From the NCBI GenBank assembly GCA_017619315.1, contig JAFZSN010000008.1, positions 188-64,187 of the forward strand: a stretch of 64,000 nt of DNA. Direction: 5' to 3'. Within the stretch, counting starts at the first letter, position 1. Every line of letters starts with the position of its first letter. Under the pieces are notes generated by a model. The model ran no database searches, was not told where the DNA came from, and saw only the letters and a program-made list of their open reading frames with translations. The translations under genes and the position numbers were made by a program. This DNA is from Candidatus Saccharimonadota bacterium (GTDB lineage Bacteria; Patescibacteriota; Saccharimonadia; Saccharimonadales; Saccharimonadaceae). Below, one piece after another: positions 29,474 through 39,295 of the stretch.

Positions 29474-32400
29474 CTATCTTCTCGGAGCTAGATCACGCTT
29501 GTACACAGTATCCAGCTTACCAGACTCCGTTACGTCGGCCTGATCAGAACCCCACAAATACAAAGTAGTATCGTAATTAATTATCTCAGCCGGAATGATC
29601 GAATTAGCACCCGTAGCCGCACCGTAAGTCCTCTTCGCATCGATCTTATTCGCAATAGTCGAACCGTTGATTATAAGCTGACGCGAACTTATTCCGTTGG
29701 TGTCCGCACCGTCAAGATCAGCGCAAGTGTCAATTACTTCTTCCGCAATCAATACCGCATCAACCCTATTCACATTACAATTAATCAAAATATTATTAGC
29801 ATAAATAATCATCTTTGGCACATCCGTCAAAGATTCGAAATTATCTTCGTACAAAATATCATCGTTTATCACAACATCTTTATCTTGAGCATAAATCACC
29901 CGAGTAGTACCCTTGCTTATAAGCTTATCCTCATCCTGTAGCACATATTGGCCCGCTTCCTCATCAGGCCTAATCACTACCACGTTTTTCCTCTCAGCCT
30001 CTGCATCGCCCATATTCACAAAAGTCGCAACAAGAGACGAACGATTCGAAGTAGCCGACGACAAACCAGAGCCACCCAACCCCGGAGTACTATTTGCACA
30101 ATTCAATCTATCAATTTCTGATGTATTTGCAAATGTCAACTTGCTCCGCTCACAGAAACTAGAGCCATATTTCTCAGCGTCAAATCCACCAGGATCCACG
30201 CTCATATTCCCCCATGGATTAGTTGCCGAATTAATAATCGGATTTGGCGACAAAACGCCACCGTTATTACTAGCATATCCAGTAGCTGCCCCACTACTAA
30301 AACCCCTCACTTCGCCAAGCGATACTACGCCCAGTTCACCAAACGAACCAAATATCCTCACCGGCTCAATACTCACGATATTGTAATCATTTAACCCTCT
30401 GACGTGCTTTTTCTCCGCCGCAGGAGTACTCAATCCACCAGCCGAGAACACGTTAGCACCCCACACTTGCAAGCTCGGCTTCTTATAAACTGCAAAACAC
30501 TTAGCCTCCGAGATATTCCATTTATCGTCACCCTCTGGCTTCAAATTATCGTCGCTTCCGCTCGTTGATGGATAAATCGCAGCCGCAACGCAGACCTTCA
30601 CGCCAGCATCGAAATCCGGGACCGTAAATGAACTATCATTCTTAAGCTTTCCTTTATATCCTTCGGTGTTACCTTCTTGATTTAAAGTCTCCGAAATTTC
30701 ATTATCCTTTGTCATCGTATAGCAACCCATATTACCAGAGTATCTACCACAAAGAGAAGATTCATAAGTCCCATAAGACTCATCGCCCTCCAAATTGGTA
30801 GAATCACCCGGCGCGAACACAATGAATCTAATTTTCGCATCCGTCTTAGTCGCATACGCTTTATCATCGCGATTCATGGTTAAATCATTATTCTTTGGAT
30901 TTACTTCAACGTTAACGTTGACCTTGCTACTCTCGCCCGCTGCAAGCACAGGCTTCCCGACTTCCTCGTTAACTTTAAAATCGTCAACACTTATCTTAGT
31001 CGTAAAGTTATATGGCACCTTCACAGCGGCATCATTTCCAATCGAATCAATATTAACCGTACTCAAGAATTCACTGCCCGCGTAGCTAAACGATACTTGT
31101 TTCGGAGTGGTTTTGTTATTACCACTCGCCGTATCGATATTGGTTTGAGCTCGCCCTTTCAATGTGCGACCAACCTCATTATTCGAAACTGTGTAATTTT
31201 CACTTTTGTCTATCGGGGTAACACTTCCAACATCTCCAGTATAACTTTTGTTAAAACCAGTAGAGAAGAAGTTCTCACTTACCACCCCATAACCATTATT
31301 CCACCCCAGGCCACTACCCATCTTACTATTAAAGAGAGCTCCGAGCGACGAACCACTTGGATTATTATATTTCTGACCAGTCTGACCGTCCCCAGTTATC
31401 TTCAAAAAATCAGGAGTTAAATAATAGGCATATTGTAGTTGCGGATTATACGAAGAAACAAAATCAACATGATCCCCTGGCTTCGCATACGCCTCACTAC
31501 CTAATTCATTAAACTTATCAACATCGTTATTTCGTACCTTCATATTTAAATAATCACTGTCGCCCACATCACGCGCATTACCCTCAACATATACACACAC
31601 TTCTCTGGTTGCAGTCGGCCTAGTTTTTGTCGAATCATTATTCGTTTCAAAAACCAGTTTTTCGCACACCTTCATCCCAGGATAAACCCTCAATGTACTC
31701 CCGCTTACTTTTTTACCACTTGTCAAAGGCCCAGTCACACTGCCGCCGTTAAAATTACCATTATTTGCAATCTTCCTGTCACCTAATTCATCCGATGTCG
31801 CATTAGAAGTTCTCTCTATATGATACCTCGTAGTTCCTTTATTATCGCTCGTCCTGACATGATGGCTAAACGAAATCTCACAACCACTACTCGCTGAGCA
31901 ATTGACAACTTTAACGTTGGCCAAGTTATTTGTGCTACCATTACCCCAACCAGTGCTACCAGATGCCGCGCCAGACACGCCGGAATATCCTTCAAAAGTC
32001 GTAACTAAACCAGTAGCACAAGAGCTTACCGTCCTCAAAGTACTCGAAGATAAATTACCGTATGGTTTGAATTCCAAACTATGACACACCTTCACGCCGG
32101 GCAATACTTTGCTAAATGCGCCTGCACTACTCCCGGTTTTAAGGAGCTGAGTTCCATTATCATTTGATGTTGGCTCTATCGTATTATAGCCCTTCTTTGG
32201 ATCCCACGTAGTACTGGCTCCATTTCCGGCGTTATATCCCAACCTATAAGTAGTGTCACCATCACCGCCTACGAGTTTAAGCTTCAAGAAATATTTCGCA
32301 TCAGTACACCCACCGTCCGGACATTTCAAATTGATATTAACGCTTTTATTACTTGCAACCCAACCAGTCGAATTCTTGATGGTAGCATTTTCGTAACCGC

Positions 32401-33124
32401 CCTGGCTAACAGCCGCTAAACCTTGAAAGCTTTTCGGGTCCGGCTTAGAGCAGAAATAACCAACGTTGAGGGGGATGGAGTCGACCTCATCTTTCCCGTC
32501 AGATGCCAAATATCTGTTATACAAAATCAGCGCTGCGCTCTGTGATATTTTCACATTATTCCGGAATCCATTATTATCCAAGTCTTTCAATTTAACTACG
32601 CCGTGATTATTATACACGGCTCTTTTGACAGCCTGAGCCTCACCATCTTTTTCACGACTTGCTGGCCCAATTTGAAAATTAAAATCATCATACCCATAAG
32701 CGCTACCGTGCATCCCGTCCCATCCATAAGAAACGAGCCACCCATCACTCTTACAGTTATTTACAGCGGTTTTCTTTAAATTATTCCCTTGCAAAATCCC
32801 CCCACCATAACCAGTGTAATCGTCTAGCCCATCCACATTGTCAACCGCCTTAAATATTCTCCAGCTCGCCCCACCACCTTCAACACCGCTTACCGTCCAG
32901 TCTGTTTCGCCTTTCTTGTTCTTCCTCCAAATGAGACACGGATCATCATAGGCATTGTCGGCGCAGCTTGCCGACGTACTATCAGACCAACCGCCTTCGC
33001 CCTCATCATTAGCATAAGTATTGGGCCCCATAACAGCAAAAGCACATAGTAACAGAATCACAAGGGTTATTTTTCGTAGCACAGTCCCGCGCCACGAGCT
33101 CTCTCCAACTAATCGCCTAACCAT
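29474..33124 (-). CDS. giant secreted Cys-rich surface protein, paralog A (no confident family)
   Basis: 1216 aa. Sec signal ending TYA|ND. Three modules share the motif (P)G.KVC (VLPGVKVCHSLEF, VYPGMKVCEKLVF, DAGVKVCVAAAIY), each followed by a partner Cys. C-terminal about 330 aa share long identical runs with 34317..38102. The ATG overlaps the upstream stop. Confidence 0.85.
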   Translation of the reverse strand: MVRRLVGESSWRGTVLRKITLVILLLCAFAVMGPNTYANDEGEGGWSDSTSASCADNAYDDPCLIWRKNKKGETDWTVSGVEGGGASWRIFKAVDNVDGLDDYTGYGGGILQGNNLKKTAVNNCKSDGWLVSYGWDGMHGSAYGYDDFNFQIGPASREKDGEAQAVKRAVYNNHGVVKLKDLDNNGFRNNVKISQSAALILYNRYLASDGKDEVDSIPLNVGYFCSKPDPKSFQGLAAVSQGGYENATIKNSTGWVASNKSVNINLKCPDGGCTDAKYFLKLKLVGGDGDTTYRLGYNAGNGASTTWDPKKGYNTIEPTSNDNGTQLLKTGSSAGAFSKVLPGVKVCHSLEFKPYGNLSSSTLRTVSSCATGLVTTFEGYSGVSGAASGSTGWGNGSTNNLANVKVVNCSASSGCEISFSHHVRTSDNKGTTRYHIERTSNATSDELGDRKIANNGNFNGGSVTGPLTSGKKVSGSTLRVYPGMKVCEKLVFETNNDSTKTRPTATREVCVYVEGNARDVGDSDYLNMKVRNNDVDKFNELGSEAYAKPGDHVDFVSSYNPQLQYAYYLTPDFLKITGDGQTGQKYNNPSGSSLGALFNSKMGSGLGWNNGYGVVSENFFSTGFNKSYTGDVGSVTPIDKSENYTVSNNEVGRTLKGRAQTNIDTASGNNKTTPKQVSFSYAGSEFLSTVNIDSIGNDAAVKVPYNFTTKISVDDFKVNEEVGKPVLAAGESSKVNVNVEVNPKNNDLTMNRDDKAYATKTDAKIRFIVFAPGDSTNLEGDESYGTYESSLCGRYSGNMGCYTMTKDNEISETLNQEGNTEGYKGKLKNDSSFTVPDFDAGVKVCVAAAIYPSTSGSDDNLKPEGDDKWNISEAKCFAVYKKPSLQVWGANVFSAGGLSTPAAEKKHVRGLNDYNIVSIEPVRIFGSFGELGVVSLGEVRGFSSGAATGYASNNGGVLSPNPIINSATNPWGNMSVDPGGFDAEKYGSSFCERSKLTFANTSEIDRLNCANSTPGLGGSGLSSATSNRSSLVATFVNMGDAEAERKNVVVIRPDEEAGQYVLQDEDKLISKGTTRVIYAQDKDVVINDDILYEDNFESLTDVPKMIIYANNILINCNVNRVDAVLIAEEVIDTCADLDGADTNGISSRQLIINGSTIANKIDAKRTYGAATGANSIIPAEIINYDTTLYLWGSDQADVTESGKLDTVYKRDLAPRR

Positions 33125-33615
33125 TCAGTCTCCTCCGCCTCATCACACTCCCATGTGGTCGAATAAATATTTGATTGTAGATAAGCCTTTTGATCTTCCG
33201 AGTACATTGACGTATCAATGCCATCCGAATAATCCTTCGCCTTATCGCAATCATTTTCATTCACCACCAAGAAAAGCATCTTTTGAGATATGATATCAAT
33301 AGCAAAATCATAATCGCCAGCTTCGTTAGCCTTGTTAATCACATCATCAAAATACGTCTCGATCTCTTCCATGCTAATATTGGGGTCATTCAACATTATA
33401 GAGGTATCCCTTATAACTTTATCCTCAGGCGAAAGTTTATCCCCCTCGAGTTCTTCAGGCAAATTATAATCACCCACAGGCTCATTGCCGCCACTACGGT
33501 TAATAGACAGTACAATTATACTTATTGTCAAACCAATAATCATCAAAAAGAGAATCGTTAGCGAAACTTTAAACCAAGCAGAATGCTTGTCTTTCCCGCC
33601 CATATCATCACTCAT
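33109..33615 (-). CDS. acidic N-terminally membrane-anchored protein, module A
   Basis: 168 aa, one TM. GDYNLPEELEGDKLSPEDKV..., CDKAKDYSDGIDTSMYSEDQ...C. Paralog of 38099..38605. Confidence 0.7.
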   Translation of the reverse strand: MSDDMGGKDKHSAWFKVSLTILFLMIIGLTISIIVLSINRSGGNEPVGDYNLPEELEGDKLSPEDKVIRDTSIMLNDPNISMEEIETYFDDVINKANEAGDYDFAIDIISQKMLFLVVNENDCDKAKDYSDGIDTSMYSEDQKAYLQSNIYSTTWECDEAEETEWLGD

Positions 33616-39211: not shown

Positions 39212-39266
39212 GGTATCACCACCTTTCCTATATTTTTTTGATGAGATGTCCAAAAATTCTGCCTTA

Positions 39267-39295
39267 ATTATATCACGCATCCCCATTTTTGTCAA
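39267..39295 (-). promoter_or_regulatory. promoter of surface module B
   Basis: Minus strand TTGACA-17-TATAAT within a block conserved with module A. Confidence 0.6.

Follow-up and report, generated by a model that had tools for sequence, protein, structure and literature searches.

Tandem copies of a putative surface cassette built around giant exported proteins in a ruminant-gut Saccharibacterium

Introduction

What purpose two adjacent genes for giant exported proteins may serve is the question raised by a 64-kb stretch of DNA (hereafter the window) from a ruminant-gut genome of Candidatus Saccharibacteria, near Ca. Nanosyncoccus. Each giant gene (g3) lies in a unit that also holds two small genes (g1 and g2), and the two tandem units, A (29474-34284) and B (34317-39295), are both on the minus strand. 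The original prediction saw in them a duplicated envelope module of a presumed epibiont; the genome does belong to an epibiont phylum.

Gene structure and transcription

All six predicted ORFs were found, all on the minus strand. The features are, in the direction of transcription:

39267..39295, minus strand: g1B promoter, TTGACA-17 nt (TGn)-TATAAT, 12/12 matches
38699-39211, minus strand: g1B, 170 aa, basic (ORF pI about 10.2), secreted, one SLH-like repeat (about 38966-39121)
38661..38682, minus strand: g1B/g2B intrinsic terminator, hairpin and T-run
38613..38641, minus strand: promoter-like site of g2B-g3B, TTGACT-17-TATAAT, 11/12 matches
38099-38605, minus strand: g2B, 168 aa, acidic, bitopic membrane protein
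34317-38102, minus strand: g3B, 1261 aa, Sec-exported, 19 Cys, C-terminal end ...SREIAPKR
34256..34284, minus strand: g1A promoter, TTGACA-17 nt (TGn)-TATAAT, 12/12 matches
33720-34193, minus strand: g1A, 157 aa, basic (pI about 10.2), secreted, one SLH-like repeat (about 33954-34103), tail ...KLRPKR
33680..33701, minus strand: g1A/g2A intrinsic terminator, hairpin and T-run
33109-33615, minus strand: g2A, 168 aa, acidic (pI 4.05), bitopic membrane protein, 2 Cys, ectodomain weakly TPR-like
29474-33124, minus strand: g3A, ORF and gene, 1216 aa
33011..33124, minus strand: g3A signal peptide as read from the sequence, residues 1-38, putative cleavage ...NTYA/ND
32435..33010, minus strand: g3A N-terminal region, residues 39-230, poorly modelled
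30485..32434, minus strand: series of beta-sandwich (Ig/MG-like) domains in the centre of g3A, residues about 231-880
29474..30484, minus strand: g3A conserved C-terminal domain, residues 881-1216, possibly beta-solenoid-like
29477-29503, minus strand: g3A family-wide tail YKRDLAPRR, at the end of the C-terminal domain

Some starts differ from those of the longest ORFs. In g1A the longest ORF (33720-34202) was shortened to ATG 34193, preceded by AGGAGG, and in g1B an over-extended ORF (38699-39385, 228 aa, TTG start) to ATG 39211, preceded by GGAAAGGTGG; both corrections agree with the deposited protein lengths of 157 and 170 aa. The g2B ORF spans 38099-38671, but the proposed start at 38605 was retained because the alternative ATG 38671 sits within the terminator hairpin.

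The units are paralogous in all three genes, as had been claimed, with similarity far above chance and strong divergence (32-44% identity). The g3 proteins align over their full length (E = 0, 40% identity), g2 across 106 aa (E = 3e-27, 42%), and g1 across 157 aa (E = 3e-18, 35%). Throughout a comparison with the close strain RGIG5746 dN/dS is 0.03-0.16; these are therefore real genes under purifying selection.

No promoters in the window other than those of g1A and g1B match the extended consensus perfectly. The upstream edges first drawn for the two units (34284 and 39295) coincide with their -35 boxes. In six of six triads examined, a perfect extended promoter lies 5' of g1 and a terminator 3' of it. 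Having its own promoter and terminator, g1 is thus a separate transcription unit, and the three genes do not form one operon. The -10 box of the promoter-like site of g2B-g3B ends 7 nt upstream of ATG 38605.

The giant proteins

The giants had been described as Cys-rich and Sec-secreted, which is borne out by a Sec-type leader and by 21 (g3A) and 19 (g3B) Cys; likewise a scan of both sequences revealed no LPXTG signal, C-terminal hydrophobic anchor or YD repeats. Neither Pfam nor NCBIfam contained a family matching any of the six proteins of the two units, and a PDB search with g3 also gave no match, in line with the statement that no characterised family was recognisable in the giants. They are not an orphan pair, however, and so "unassignable" is better read as "unannotated": an exhaustive g3 profile search recovered 4,102 clusters at 50% identity (E <= 1e-3), 1,821 of them at E <= 1e-30, placing the family at no fewer than 1,800 to 4,100 clusters. 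g3 is a member of a large, unannotated, fast-recombining family. Its relatives are encoded at 145 places in species-representative genomes. Titles were listed for 76 of these loci and, with five exceptions, read Ca. Saccharibacteria or Ca. Nanosyncoccus; the listed loci come from the gut of sheep, goat, yak, deer, and cattle, and many genomes recur among them, with several copies per genome.

Among the best 150 of the 4,102 profile matches, every alignment reaches the C-terminal end of the profile; the N-terminal extensions are variable, and protein length ranges from 667 to 2056 aa. Ricin-B lectin modules occur in the variable N-termini of two relatives (P0014 and P0098), a Listeria-Bacteroides repeat (Flg_new) scores above threshold in a third (P0067, 44 bits), and a thioester domain in P0098 falls just under threshold. 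No ligand-binding module was recognisable in either window giant, whose N-terminal 140 residues are poorly modelled by AlphaFold.

The AlphaFold model of the giant (mean pLDDT 71.7) has confident beta-sandwiches at model residues about 190-850, and a P/A-G-x-K-V-C...C hairpin closes three of the central domains of g3A. These folds are Ig-like: Foldseek matched the model to Ig/MG arrays, including the Ig-like domains of PrgB, bacterial alpha-2-macroglobulin, complement C3 and phage Hoc or tail fibres.

The conserved C-terminal domain gave a model with a mean pLDDT of 58 and a top Foldseek E-value of 0.9, which is not significant. Many of its polar positions (K, E, D, R, N, S, Y) are invariant, and it ends in a tail, E-L-[AS]-P-R-x-COOH, that is almost invariant in the family: among 157 members, 151 carry E at -6, 151 carry P at -3 and 150 carry R at -2, the last residue being commonly [YLR].

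Such a wealth of invariant polar residues could belong to a glycan-degrading enzyme, secreted or bound to the surface, in which a C-terminal beta-helix lyase or hydrolase, targeted by the N-terminus, would attack the wall or capsule of the host. The weak fold matches are beta-helix proteins, a PL6 lyase among them, but all are non-significant and come from a low-confidence model, and Pfam and PDB sequence searches yielded no match; we consider this reading very improbable. Lower still, and lowest of the alternatives, stands a type IV pilus tip adhesin analogous to PilY1/PilC, with the C-terminal domain docking on minor pilins. PilY1, with its variable N-terminus and conserved C-terminus, resembles g3 in architecture. 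At one locus (L035) a giant lies directly 3' of three pilin-like genes (GFTLVE and GFTLIE leaders and a PilX-like gene), at another (L033) a giant is followed by pilin genes, and the weak top matches of the C-terminal model include the beta-solenoid of the pilin ComZ. Against it, the ComZ match is not significant (E = 0.95), Pfam searches detected no PilY1/PilC, pilin genes are nearby in only two of 83 sequences (the window and 82 loci), and none adjoins the cassette in the window.

The g2-g3 pair and its exchange

As described originally, g2 is acidic (pI 4.05-4.10) and has a single N-terminal hydrophobic helix and two Cys. The end of g2A overlaps the start of g3A by 16 nt, and the stop of g2B overlaps the start of g3B by 4 nt (ATGA). 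Of 82 different giants whose 5' context is intact, 65 are immediately preceded by a small same-strand ORF with an N-terminal TM helix; the median g2-g3 gap is -11 nt, a 4-nt overlap occurs in 14 of the 65 pairs, and 51 of these ORFs match the g2 HMM. No g2 was detected at the other 17, which include L033, where an upstream ORF of 213 aa was rejected by a stricter TM test; g2 is therefore not obligatory. The expectation that the triad would be co-localised elsewhere held in part: it recurs in other genomes, at three separate loci in GCA_045650525.1, but the conserved unit is g2-g3 and g1 is an extra. Triad g1 is restricted to the nearest clade of the window, and g1-like genes were also found alone.

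The g2 profile gave weak matches (E 9e-4 to 7e-3) to alpha-SNAP and to designed TPR proteins, so the ectodomain is perhaps TPR-like. g2 is hypervariable (mean column identity 21%), and the similarity of its ectodomain follows that of the N-terminal 250 aa of the giant (Spearman rho 0.46, partial 0.43, permutation p = 0.001), as against 0.04 for the middle and a weak 0.20 for the C-terminus. Relative to strain RGIG5746, dS is 0.12-0.25 in RadA and in g3A residues 230-1216, rises to 0.65-1.75 in g2A and in the first 230 residues of g3A, and reaches saturation in g1A. Such a jump indicates recombinational cassette replacement of g1A, g2A and the g3A N-terminus.

Joint exchange between strains, tight adjacency with translational coupling, and co-variation specific to the g3 N-terminus would all suit a polymorphic effector, in which an antagonistic or host-manipulating N-terminus would be neutralised by g2 as its cognate membrane-bound protector. 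None of the family N-termini scanned, however, showed a toxin or enzyme domain; the modules recognisable there are of adhesin types (lectin, repeat, thioester), and physical linkage may be the sole cause of the co-variation. Polymorphic toxin systems carry the variable domain at the C-terminus and the immunity gene downstream, a polarity opposite to that of g2-g3. This explanation ranks above the enzymatic one and is still very unlikely.

g1 and the S-layer domain

The core of g1 was predicted to resemble a single S-layer homology (SLH) repeat. The relationship is supported by the family: seven of 13 members have SLH as their top Pfam family, and two relatives (P0021 and P0033) reach the Pfam gathering score. 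The window copies themselves matched no SLH model in Pfam. Both retain a GIIxG-like motif (GVVSG, GIVKG), Tyr or Phe stands in place of the conserved Trp, and each copy has a degenerate TRAE motif, whereas relatives keep TRxE. Since the window copies lack both an SLH match and an intact TRAE, their wall-polymer binding stays putative. The mature protein is only about 130 aa, and g1B lacks the P-[KR]-[KR] tail.

An SLH-related protein under the strongest promoters of the window, next to giants with abundant Ig-like domains, brings to mind an S-layer or envelope lattice, formed by the g3 arrays and fixed to the wall by g1 as an adaptor. Unusually for S-layer proteins, g3 has 19-21 Cys. Most family members have no g1, g3 follows a terminator and not the strong promoter, and the multiple paralogues in a genome, strongly diverged and with exchanged N-termini, are unlike one abundant lattice protein. 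As precedents, Ig-array S-layers are known, HPI of D. radiodurans (PMC10120038) being one, and single-SLH proteins can bind the wall as trimers, as does SlpA (PMC9388160). A lattice is unlikely here, and is the foremost of the alternatives considered.

Proposed role of the cassette

The reading that we prefer, with about an even chance of being right (roughly 0.5), is that of a modular, non-covalently anchored surface adhesin or host-recognition fibre with g2 as partner and g1 as add-on; the large protein probably mediates contact with other cells. The region would then represent an ancient, since diverged tandem duplication of a lineage-specific surface cassette of Ca. Nanosyncoccus-group Saccharibacteria, its core being the translationally coupled g2-g3 pair. 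Exported by Sec, g3 would consist of a fast-changing modular N-terminus, presumably the exposed ligand-binding end, an Ig-like beta-sandwich stalk, and a conserved C-terminal domain of ~340 aa that may keep the protein attached to the envelope of its own cell. This anchoring role is suggested by conservation, the fold being unassignable (pLDDT 58, E 0.9). Made in step with g3 and changing along with its N-terminus, g2 may serve that end as its own membrane-bound partner in assembly or docking. The membrane tether or chaperone first suggested for g2 is likewise a putative role, as is host attachment by the cassette. Strongly and separately transcribed, g1 appears to have been added upstream within the clade of the window, probably as a wall-associated partner and most likely as a trimer. 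In a cultivated Saccharibacterium, Tn-seq revealed several glycan-binding envelope proteins required in epibiotic growth (PMC10633639), and a study of type IV pili in TM7x invokes further close-range adhesins (PMC12206443).

Comparison with known systems

g3 shares with PilY1/PilC a large size, Sec export, variable N-terminal and conserved C-terminal parts, and occasional adjacency to minor-pilin genes; it differs in lacking homology, in a C-terminus not predicted to be a beta-propeller, and in the rarity of adjoining pilin genes (2/83). PEX5-PTS1 and Hop-EEVD are pairs in which TPR receptors bind C-terminal peptides. By analogy only, a small, weakly TPR-like domain (in g2) is encoded beside a g3 with an invariant extreme C-terminal motif; the hypervariable g2 (21%) contrasts with that tail and co-varies with the g3 N-terminus instead.

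With SLH anchors (the S-layer proteins SpaA and Sap, the connectors SlpA/OmpM) g1 has in common the SLH threshold reached by its relatives, the GIIxG-like motif, the TRxE of relatives and, as in SlpA, one SLH repeat per chain (PMC9388160). It differs in its small mature size (~130 aa) without lattice, barrel or coiled-coil domain, in the Trp to Tyr/Phe change and the degenerate TRAE of both window copies, and in that the SLH repeat (g1) and the large protein (g3) are separate polypeptides.

The Gram-positive multidomain surface adhesins (MSCRAMM-like, PrgB-type, thioester-domain) share with g3 Sec export, a variable N-terminal end that in g3 would bind ligand, an Ig-like beta-sandwich stalk (the Foldseek match to PrgB Ig-like domains), and, in some relatives, modules of the lectin, Listeria-Bacteroides repeat and possibly the thioester type. 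Unlike them, g3 lacks an LPXTG sortase signal or other known wall- or membrane-anchor motif. In their place stands a conserved, unassigned C-terminal domain whose free end is an invariant tail, and g3 is paired, by translational coupling, with a small membrane protein of its own, g2.

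Organization of the two cassettes

Six open reading frames (ORFs) on the minus strand make up two adjacent cassettes, units A and B, whose products may form a modular cell-surface system. Gene order is identical in both units: a small SLH-like secreted protein (g1), a small membrane protein (g2) and a giant secreted protein (g3, 1216 aa in unit A and 1261 aa in unit B). The genes and their transcription signals are as follows.

Genes and transcription signals of units A and B
29474-33124, minus strand, g3A, from the ORF
33109-33615, minus strand, g2A, from the ORF
33680-33701, minus strand, terminator 3' of g1A, GC-rich hairpin plus T-run
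33720-34193, minus strand, g1A, from the ORF, ribosome-binding site and deposited protein length
34256-34284, minus strand, promoter of g1A, perfect TTGACA-17 nt (TGn)-TATAAT
34317-38102, minus strand, g3B, from the ORF
38099-38605, minus strand, g2B, from the ORF, start placed downstream of the hairpin
38661-38682, minus strand, terminator 3' of g1B, GC-rich hairpin plus T-run
38699-39211, minus strand, g1B, from the ORF, ribosome-binding site and deposited protein length
39267-39295, minus strand, promoter of g1B, perfect TTGACA-17 nt (TGn)-TATAAT

The g1 starts (34193 and 39211) are fixed by ribosome-binding sites and deposited protein lengths. The start at 38605 that the original prediction had chosen for g2B was borne out, because the alternative ATG at 38671 falls within the terminator hairpin. 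The g2 and g3 genes overlap (16 nt in unit A, 4 nt in unit B), and the end of g2 contains a Shine-Dalgarno sequence. The cassettes are flanked by clpC-clpP on one side and by radA-ruvC-ruvA on the other, and deposited protein names assign the locus to a Candidatus Saccharibacteria MAG. On the + strand, GC skew is negative in all 2-kb blocks of the window (-0.11 to -0.45) and its sign never changes; the minus strand carries most of the long ORFs.

By sequence comparison, all three A/B pairs are clearly homologous: g3A and g3B share 40% identity over their full length (E = 0), g2A and g2B 42% across 106 aa (E = 3e-27), and g1A and g1B 35% across 157 aa (E = 3e-18). The g1 proteins are basic (pI about 10.2) and the g2 proteins acidic (about 4.1), and g3 has a Sec-type leader and many cysteines (21 in g3A, 19 in g3B).

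Transcription

Perfect TTGACA-17 nt (TGn)-TATAAT sites occur only twice in the 64-kb window, once before each g1, for a shuffled-sequence expectation of zero. The same promoter-g1-terminator arrangement was found in four of four further complete triads (g1, g2 and g3 together; loci L001, L003, L023 and L086). From this layout g1 is predicted to be strongly expressed, as a transcription unit that is either separate or attenuated. The g2-g3 pair lies downstream as a coupled pair, and g2B has a promoter match of its own (11/12). Both g2 genes are devoid of a Shine-Dalgarno sequence (window 33603-33640 and 38605-38641), and a TATAAT box ends 3 nt 5' of the g2A ATG and 7 nt 5' of that of g2B, so that the g2-g3 transcripts may be leaderless.

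Evolution of the cassettes

Recent tandem duplication was rejected as the origin of the two units. The g3A protein is closer to single-copy units elsewhere (48-51% identity) than to g3B (44%), and since unit A lies nearer to the single units of L001 and L003 than to unit B, the duplication is judged to be old.

A tandem layout like that of the window is present in the sheep-ileum strain RGIG5746 (L007), in which the flanks are 92-98% identical and the cassette is a mosaic. Nucleotide identity between the two is 94-99% over g3A residues 230-1216, 79-84% over residues 1-230, 82-89% in g2A, 58-66% in g1A and 53-64% in the N-terminal two-thirds of g3B. Local positive selection was rejected as the origin of the hypervariable segment, because dS climbs with dN, and dN/dS stays at 0.03-0.16 throughout the cassette. 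The several-fold higher dS of the divergent segment, together with this low ratio, indicates allelic replacement by recombination, which is the better explanation.

The g1 protein and the SLH domain

The original prediction saw a likeness to a single SLH repeat in g1, a reading that is supported at the level of the family, while the two window proteins themselves give no profile match. In Pfam (PF00395, a 44-position model with a gathering score of 20.8 bits), neither g1A nor g1B matched SLH at E ≤ 1, nor g1A at E ≤ 10, whereas SLH is the top family in 7 of the 13 members of the g1 family. Two relatives exceed the gathering score: P0021, 39% identical to g1A, with 20.9 bits over profile positions 1-43, and P0033 with 22.3 bits, each match covering almost the entire model. 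The conserved motifs of SLH domains are Trp13, GIIxG (Gly29) and TRAE (Arg43) (PMC6081394). The second is retained as GVVSG in g1A and GIVKG in g1B; Tyr or Phe replaces the Trp (Tyr in the window copies, YKAI), and the TRAE position is degenerate (LRLK in g1A, which keeps the Arg, and TGRI in g1B), relatives having TRLE, TRKE, TRRE or TRQE.

Each g1 chain has a single clear repeat. In the SLH architecture three repeats build a three-pronged spindle, either within one chain or by trimerization. Single repeats of SlpA-type proteins can act as trimers (PMC9388160). A triad that builds an S-layer fits the data as a whole less well than a modular surface system to which a wall protein has been added.

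The g1 gene stands beside g2-g3 only in the nearest clade, that is, in the window (twice), L007, L001, L003, L023, L086 and L087. In one genome the triad is present three times, each at a different locus. The g1-like gene of P0030 occurs apart from a triad, as apparently does that of P0033, whose contig ends about 430 bp downstream. In L087 (10001-13526) a g1B-type triad occupies an ABC/FtsX-phosphorylase site shared with L086, and its third gene, of 794 aa only, may be a shortened giant.

An SLH protein would be expected to bind a pyruvylated secondary cell-wall polymer, in a genome that encodes CsaB. A surface-polysaccharide biosynthesis cluster lies on the minus strand of the window at 54498-63212, with a GT2 glycosyltransferase, an FkbM-type methyltransferase, a UDP-glucose dehydrogenase, an NAD-dependent epimerase/dehydratase, a Wzy-like/GT1 fusion (751 aa) and a 494-aa protein lacking a Pfam match. 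This cluster could make the wall or capsule polymer to which an SLH protein binds; the ORFs scanned in it (54.5-63.2 kb) gave no pyruvyl-transferase match.

The g2 partner

Homology searches with g2 found almost nothing, and its distribution was established from gene position. Of the 82 distinct giants whose upstream sequence is intact, 65 are preceded on the same strand by an ORF of 77-220 aa that encodes an N-terminal transmembrane helix and abuts or overlaps the giant start (median gap -11 nt). The g2 HMM matches 51 of these ORFs, and nearly all of its matches lie directly upstream of a giant. Co-localization in other genomes is widespread for g2 and the giant and includes g1 in the nearest clade only. 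A profile of 44 g2 sequences gave weak matches to designed TPR proteins (5fzq, E = 8.8e-4; 5fzr, E = 1.5e-3) and alpha-SNAP (E = 7e-3), and Pfam TPR models match only one of the 44. Similarity among g2 ectodomains tracks that of the N-terminal 250 aa of the giants (45 pairs; rho 0.46, partial 0.43, permutation p = 0.001), as against rho 0.04 for the giant middle and a weak 0.20 for the C-terminus. The pair might be read as an effector with its protector, which fits less well than a membrane partner linked to a surface protein.

In some distant relatives (L004 4991-13411, L006 340-9551, L010 and L045) two g2-giant pairs or solo giants stand head to head on opposite strands, with a different g2 subtype in each arm. 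Giants lacking g2 sit just downstream of one recurring pair of housekeeping genes in L016, L032, L036, L052, L055, L061 and L082, a repeated position that suggests a second preferred insertion site. The first of these genes, whose P-loop product contains the motif GDVGAGKTTF, is probably TsaE, judging by the motif; the second probably corresponds to the Mur ligase-like neighbour of a giant in L004.

The giant family

The family was badly understated by a word-indexed homologue search (17 giants and 3 g2 proteins), since an exhaustive profile search gave 4,102 clusters at 50% identity for E ≤ 1e-3, and 1,821 for E ≤ 1e-30. All of the best 150 cluster alignments reach the C-terminal end of the profile, and many start no earlier than profile position 200-350 or so, preceded by N-terminal extensions that are unrelated to one another and can reach about 1,000 aa. 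Some of the variable N-termini carry ricin-B lectin or Listeria-Bacteroides (Flg_new) repeats, and one a near-threshold thioester domain; most have no recognizable module. A scan of species-representative genomes gave 145 giant relatives, and almost all of the 76 loci listed belong to Ca. Saccharibacteria or Ca. Nanosyncoccus from ruminant gut, the genomes often having at least two loci. Named members are all titled [quoted passage not shown]. Several giants (clearest in L050 and L058, also L057, L061 and L066) come from contigs whose bins are labelled "Clostridiales bacterium", "Bulleidia sp." or "bacterium"; for L050 and L058 the probable cause is that Saccharibacteria contigs were mis-binned into other MAGs.

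The view that the giants belong to no characterized family held under profile search. Neither g3A nor g3B matched Pfam or NCBIfam at E ≤ 1, or any PDB sequence, and a 19-sequence giant profile was equally devoid of matches in the three databases, with no curated family recurring in the conserved core of these relatives. The curated repeat families, RHS/YD, cadherin, Big and DUF11 among them, were rejected on this basis. For the six cassette proteins together, Pfam, NCBIfam and PDB yielded no more than the SLH relationship of the g1 family and the weak TPR resemblance of g2. A sortase-anchored protein, which would end in an LPXTG-like motif, a hydrophobic segment and a basic tail, was likewise discarded, as g3A and g3B contain neither LPxT[GANS] nor a C-terminal hydrophobic run, in agreement with the original prediction.

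Structure comparison of g3A placed the giant in a fold class and in no specific family. The AlphaFold model (mean pLDDT 71.7) is confident at about residues 190-850 (mostly 75-94), a predicted run of beta-sandwiches. Foldseek matched this centre to PrgB Ig-like domains, alpha-2-macroglobulin and C3/C5 MG domains (probability 1.0, E about 1e-7 to 1e-8) with low TM-scores (0.07-0.22) and 6-11% identity, so that the match extends to fold class only, and at that level the modelled centre belongs with Ig-like beta-sandwich arrays. The full model gave only generic Ig/MG-domain arrays against PDB and viral libraries. A conserved P/A-G-x-K-V-C...C hairpin closes three of the beta-sandwich domains in both paralogues.

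Conservation in the giant is highest over its C-terminal 340 aa or so. A separate model of the last 339 aa was poor (pLDDT 58), with mixed strands and helices, and gave no significant Foldseek fold, the best, non-significant matches being beta-helix proteins. A beta-solenoid fold is for these reasons only hinted at. A beta-helix enzyme fits the data as a whole less well than the modular surface system.

A pilus-tip adhesin, which fits less well than the modular surface system, would place the giant at the end of a pilus, and in two Nanosyncoccus/Saccharibacteria MAGs minor-pilin-like clusters do directly adjoin giants (L035 131-3094 and L033 6782-8460), with GFTLVE and GFTLIE leaders and, in L035, a PilX-like protein of 461 aa. 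Of the 83 sequences examined, no more than 2 have pilin genes in the vicinity, and pilus association was accordingly rejected as a general explanation. Identity with PilY1/PilC was rejected on the same count, and since g3 has no Pfam match to PF05567 and its C-terminal model none to a propeller.

The extreme C-terminus is nearly invariant in 157 giants (Y-x-[RHK]-E-[LIV]-[AS]-P-R-[YLRK]-COOH). A tail of the form phi-x-P-R-x-COOH is shared by 90 of the 99 giant ORFs and 7 of the 8 g1 ORFs, versus 8 of about 1,000 other ORFs, and phi-x-P-[RK]-x-COOH is common to g1 proteins and giants, although these are otherwise unrelated. It is conceivable, though improbable, that the tail is the recognition signal of an unrecognized Patescibacteria pathway of surface-protein sorting or anchoring. 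A dedicated component of the envelope, for which the TPR-like g2 ectodomain is a possible candidate, would read it and fix a swappable host-specific adhesin head to the cell without sortase, and the recombining module (g1, g2 and the N-terminus of g3) would then determine which hosts gut Saccharibacteria can use.

Proposed role and comparison with known systems

We infer the surface location, binding partners and function of g3. In the modular cell-surface system preferred here, the conserved body and C-terminal domain of g3 would presumably engage the cell's own envelope and its N-terminus would be a swappable head for ligand or host recognition. A TPR-like membrane partner, g2, would be made in stoichiometric step with g3 and linked to the head, and the nearest clade would have added an abundant small SLH wall protein, g1, predicted to be highly expressed.

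To our knowledge, host recognition and attachment by Saccharibacteria and other ultrasmall epibionts are largely unknown beyond type IV pili, and we know of few genetic clues to attachment in the Nanosyncoccus (G3) group. The giants, a large, unannotated and multi-copy family with a conserved body, swappable N-terminal heads and a dedicated partner gene, are concrete candidate determinants of host specificity and merit addition to domain databases. Published work shows that several envelope proteins that bind glycans are required by Saccharibacteria (PMC10633639) and invokes close-range adhesins in addition to pili (PMC12206443).

Elsewhere in the window, the minus strand at 49068-52735 carries adjacent genes for a PAD_porph-type (agmatine/peptidyl-arginine) deiminase, an amino-acid permease and an ornithine/aspartate carbamoyltransferase. 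The set resembles an energy pathway of the arginine deiminase type that is reported to be essential in one cultivated Saccharibacterium (PMC10633639).

The literature search gave no description of the giant family. Within the databases and literature searched, this family, its conserved tail, the coupled g2 and the separately transcribed single-SLH gene are new or undescribed; the general kind of system, in which accessory anchoring proteins accompany a multidomain surface adhesin, is itself known.
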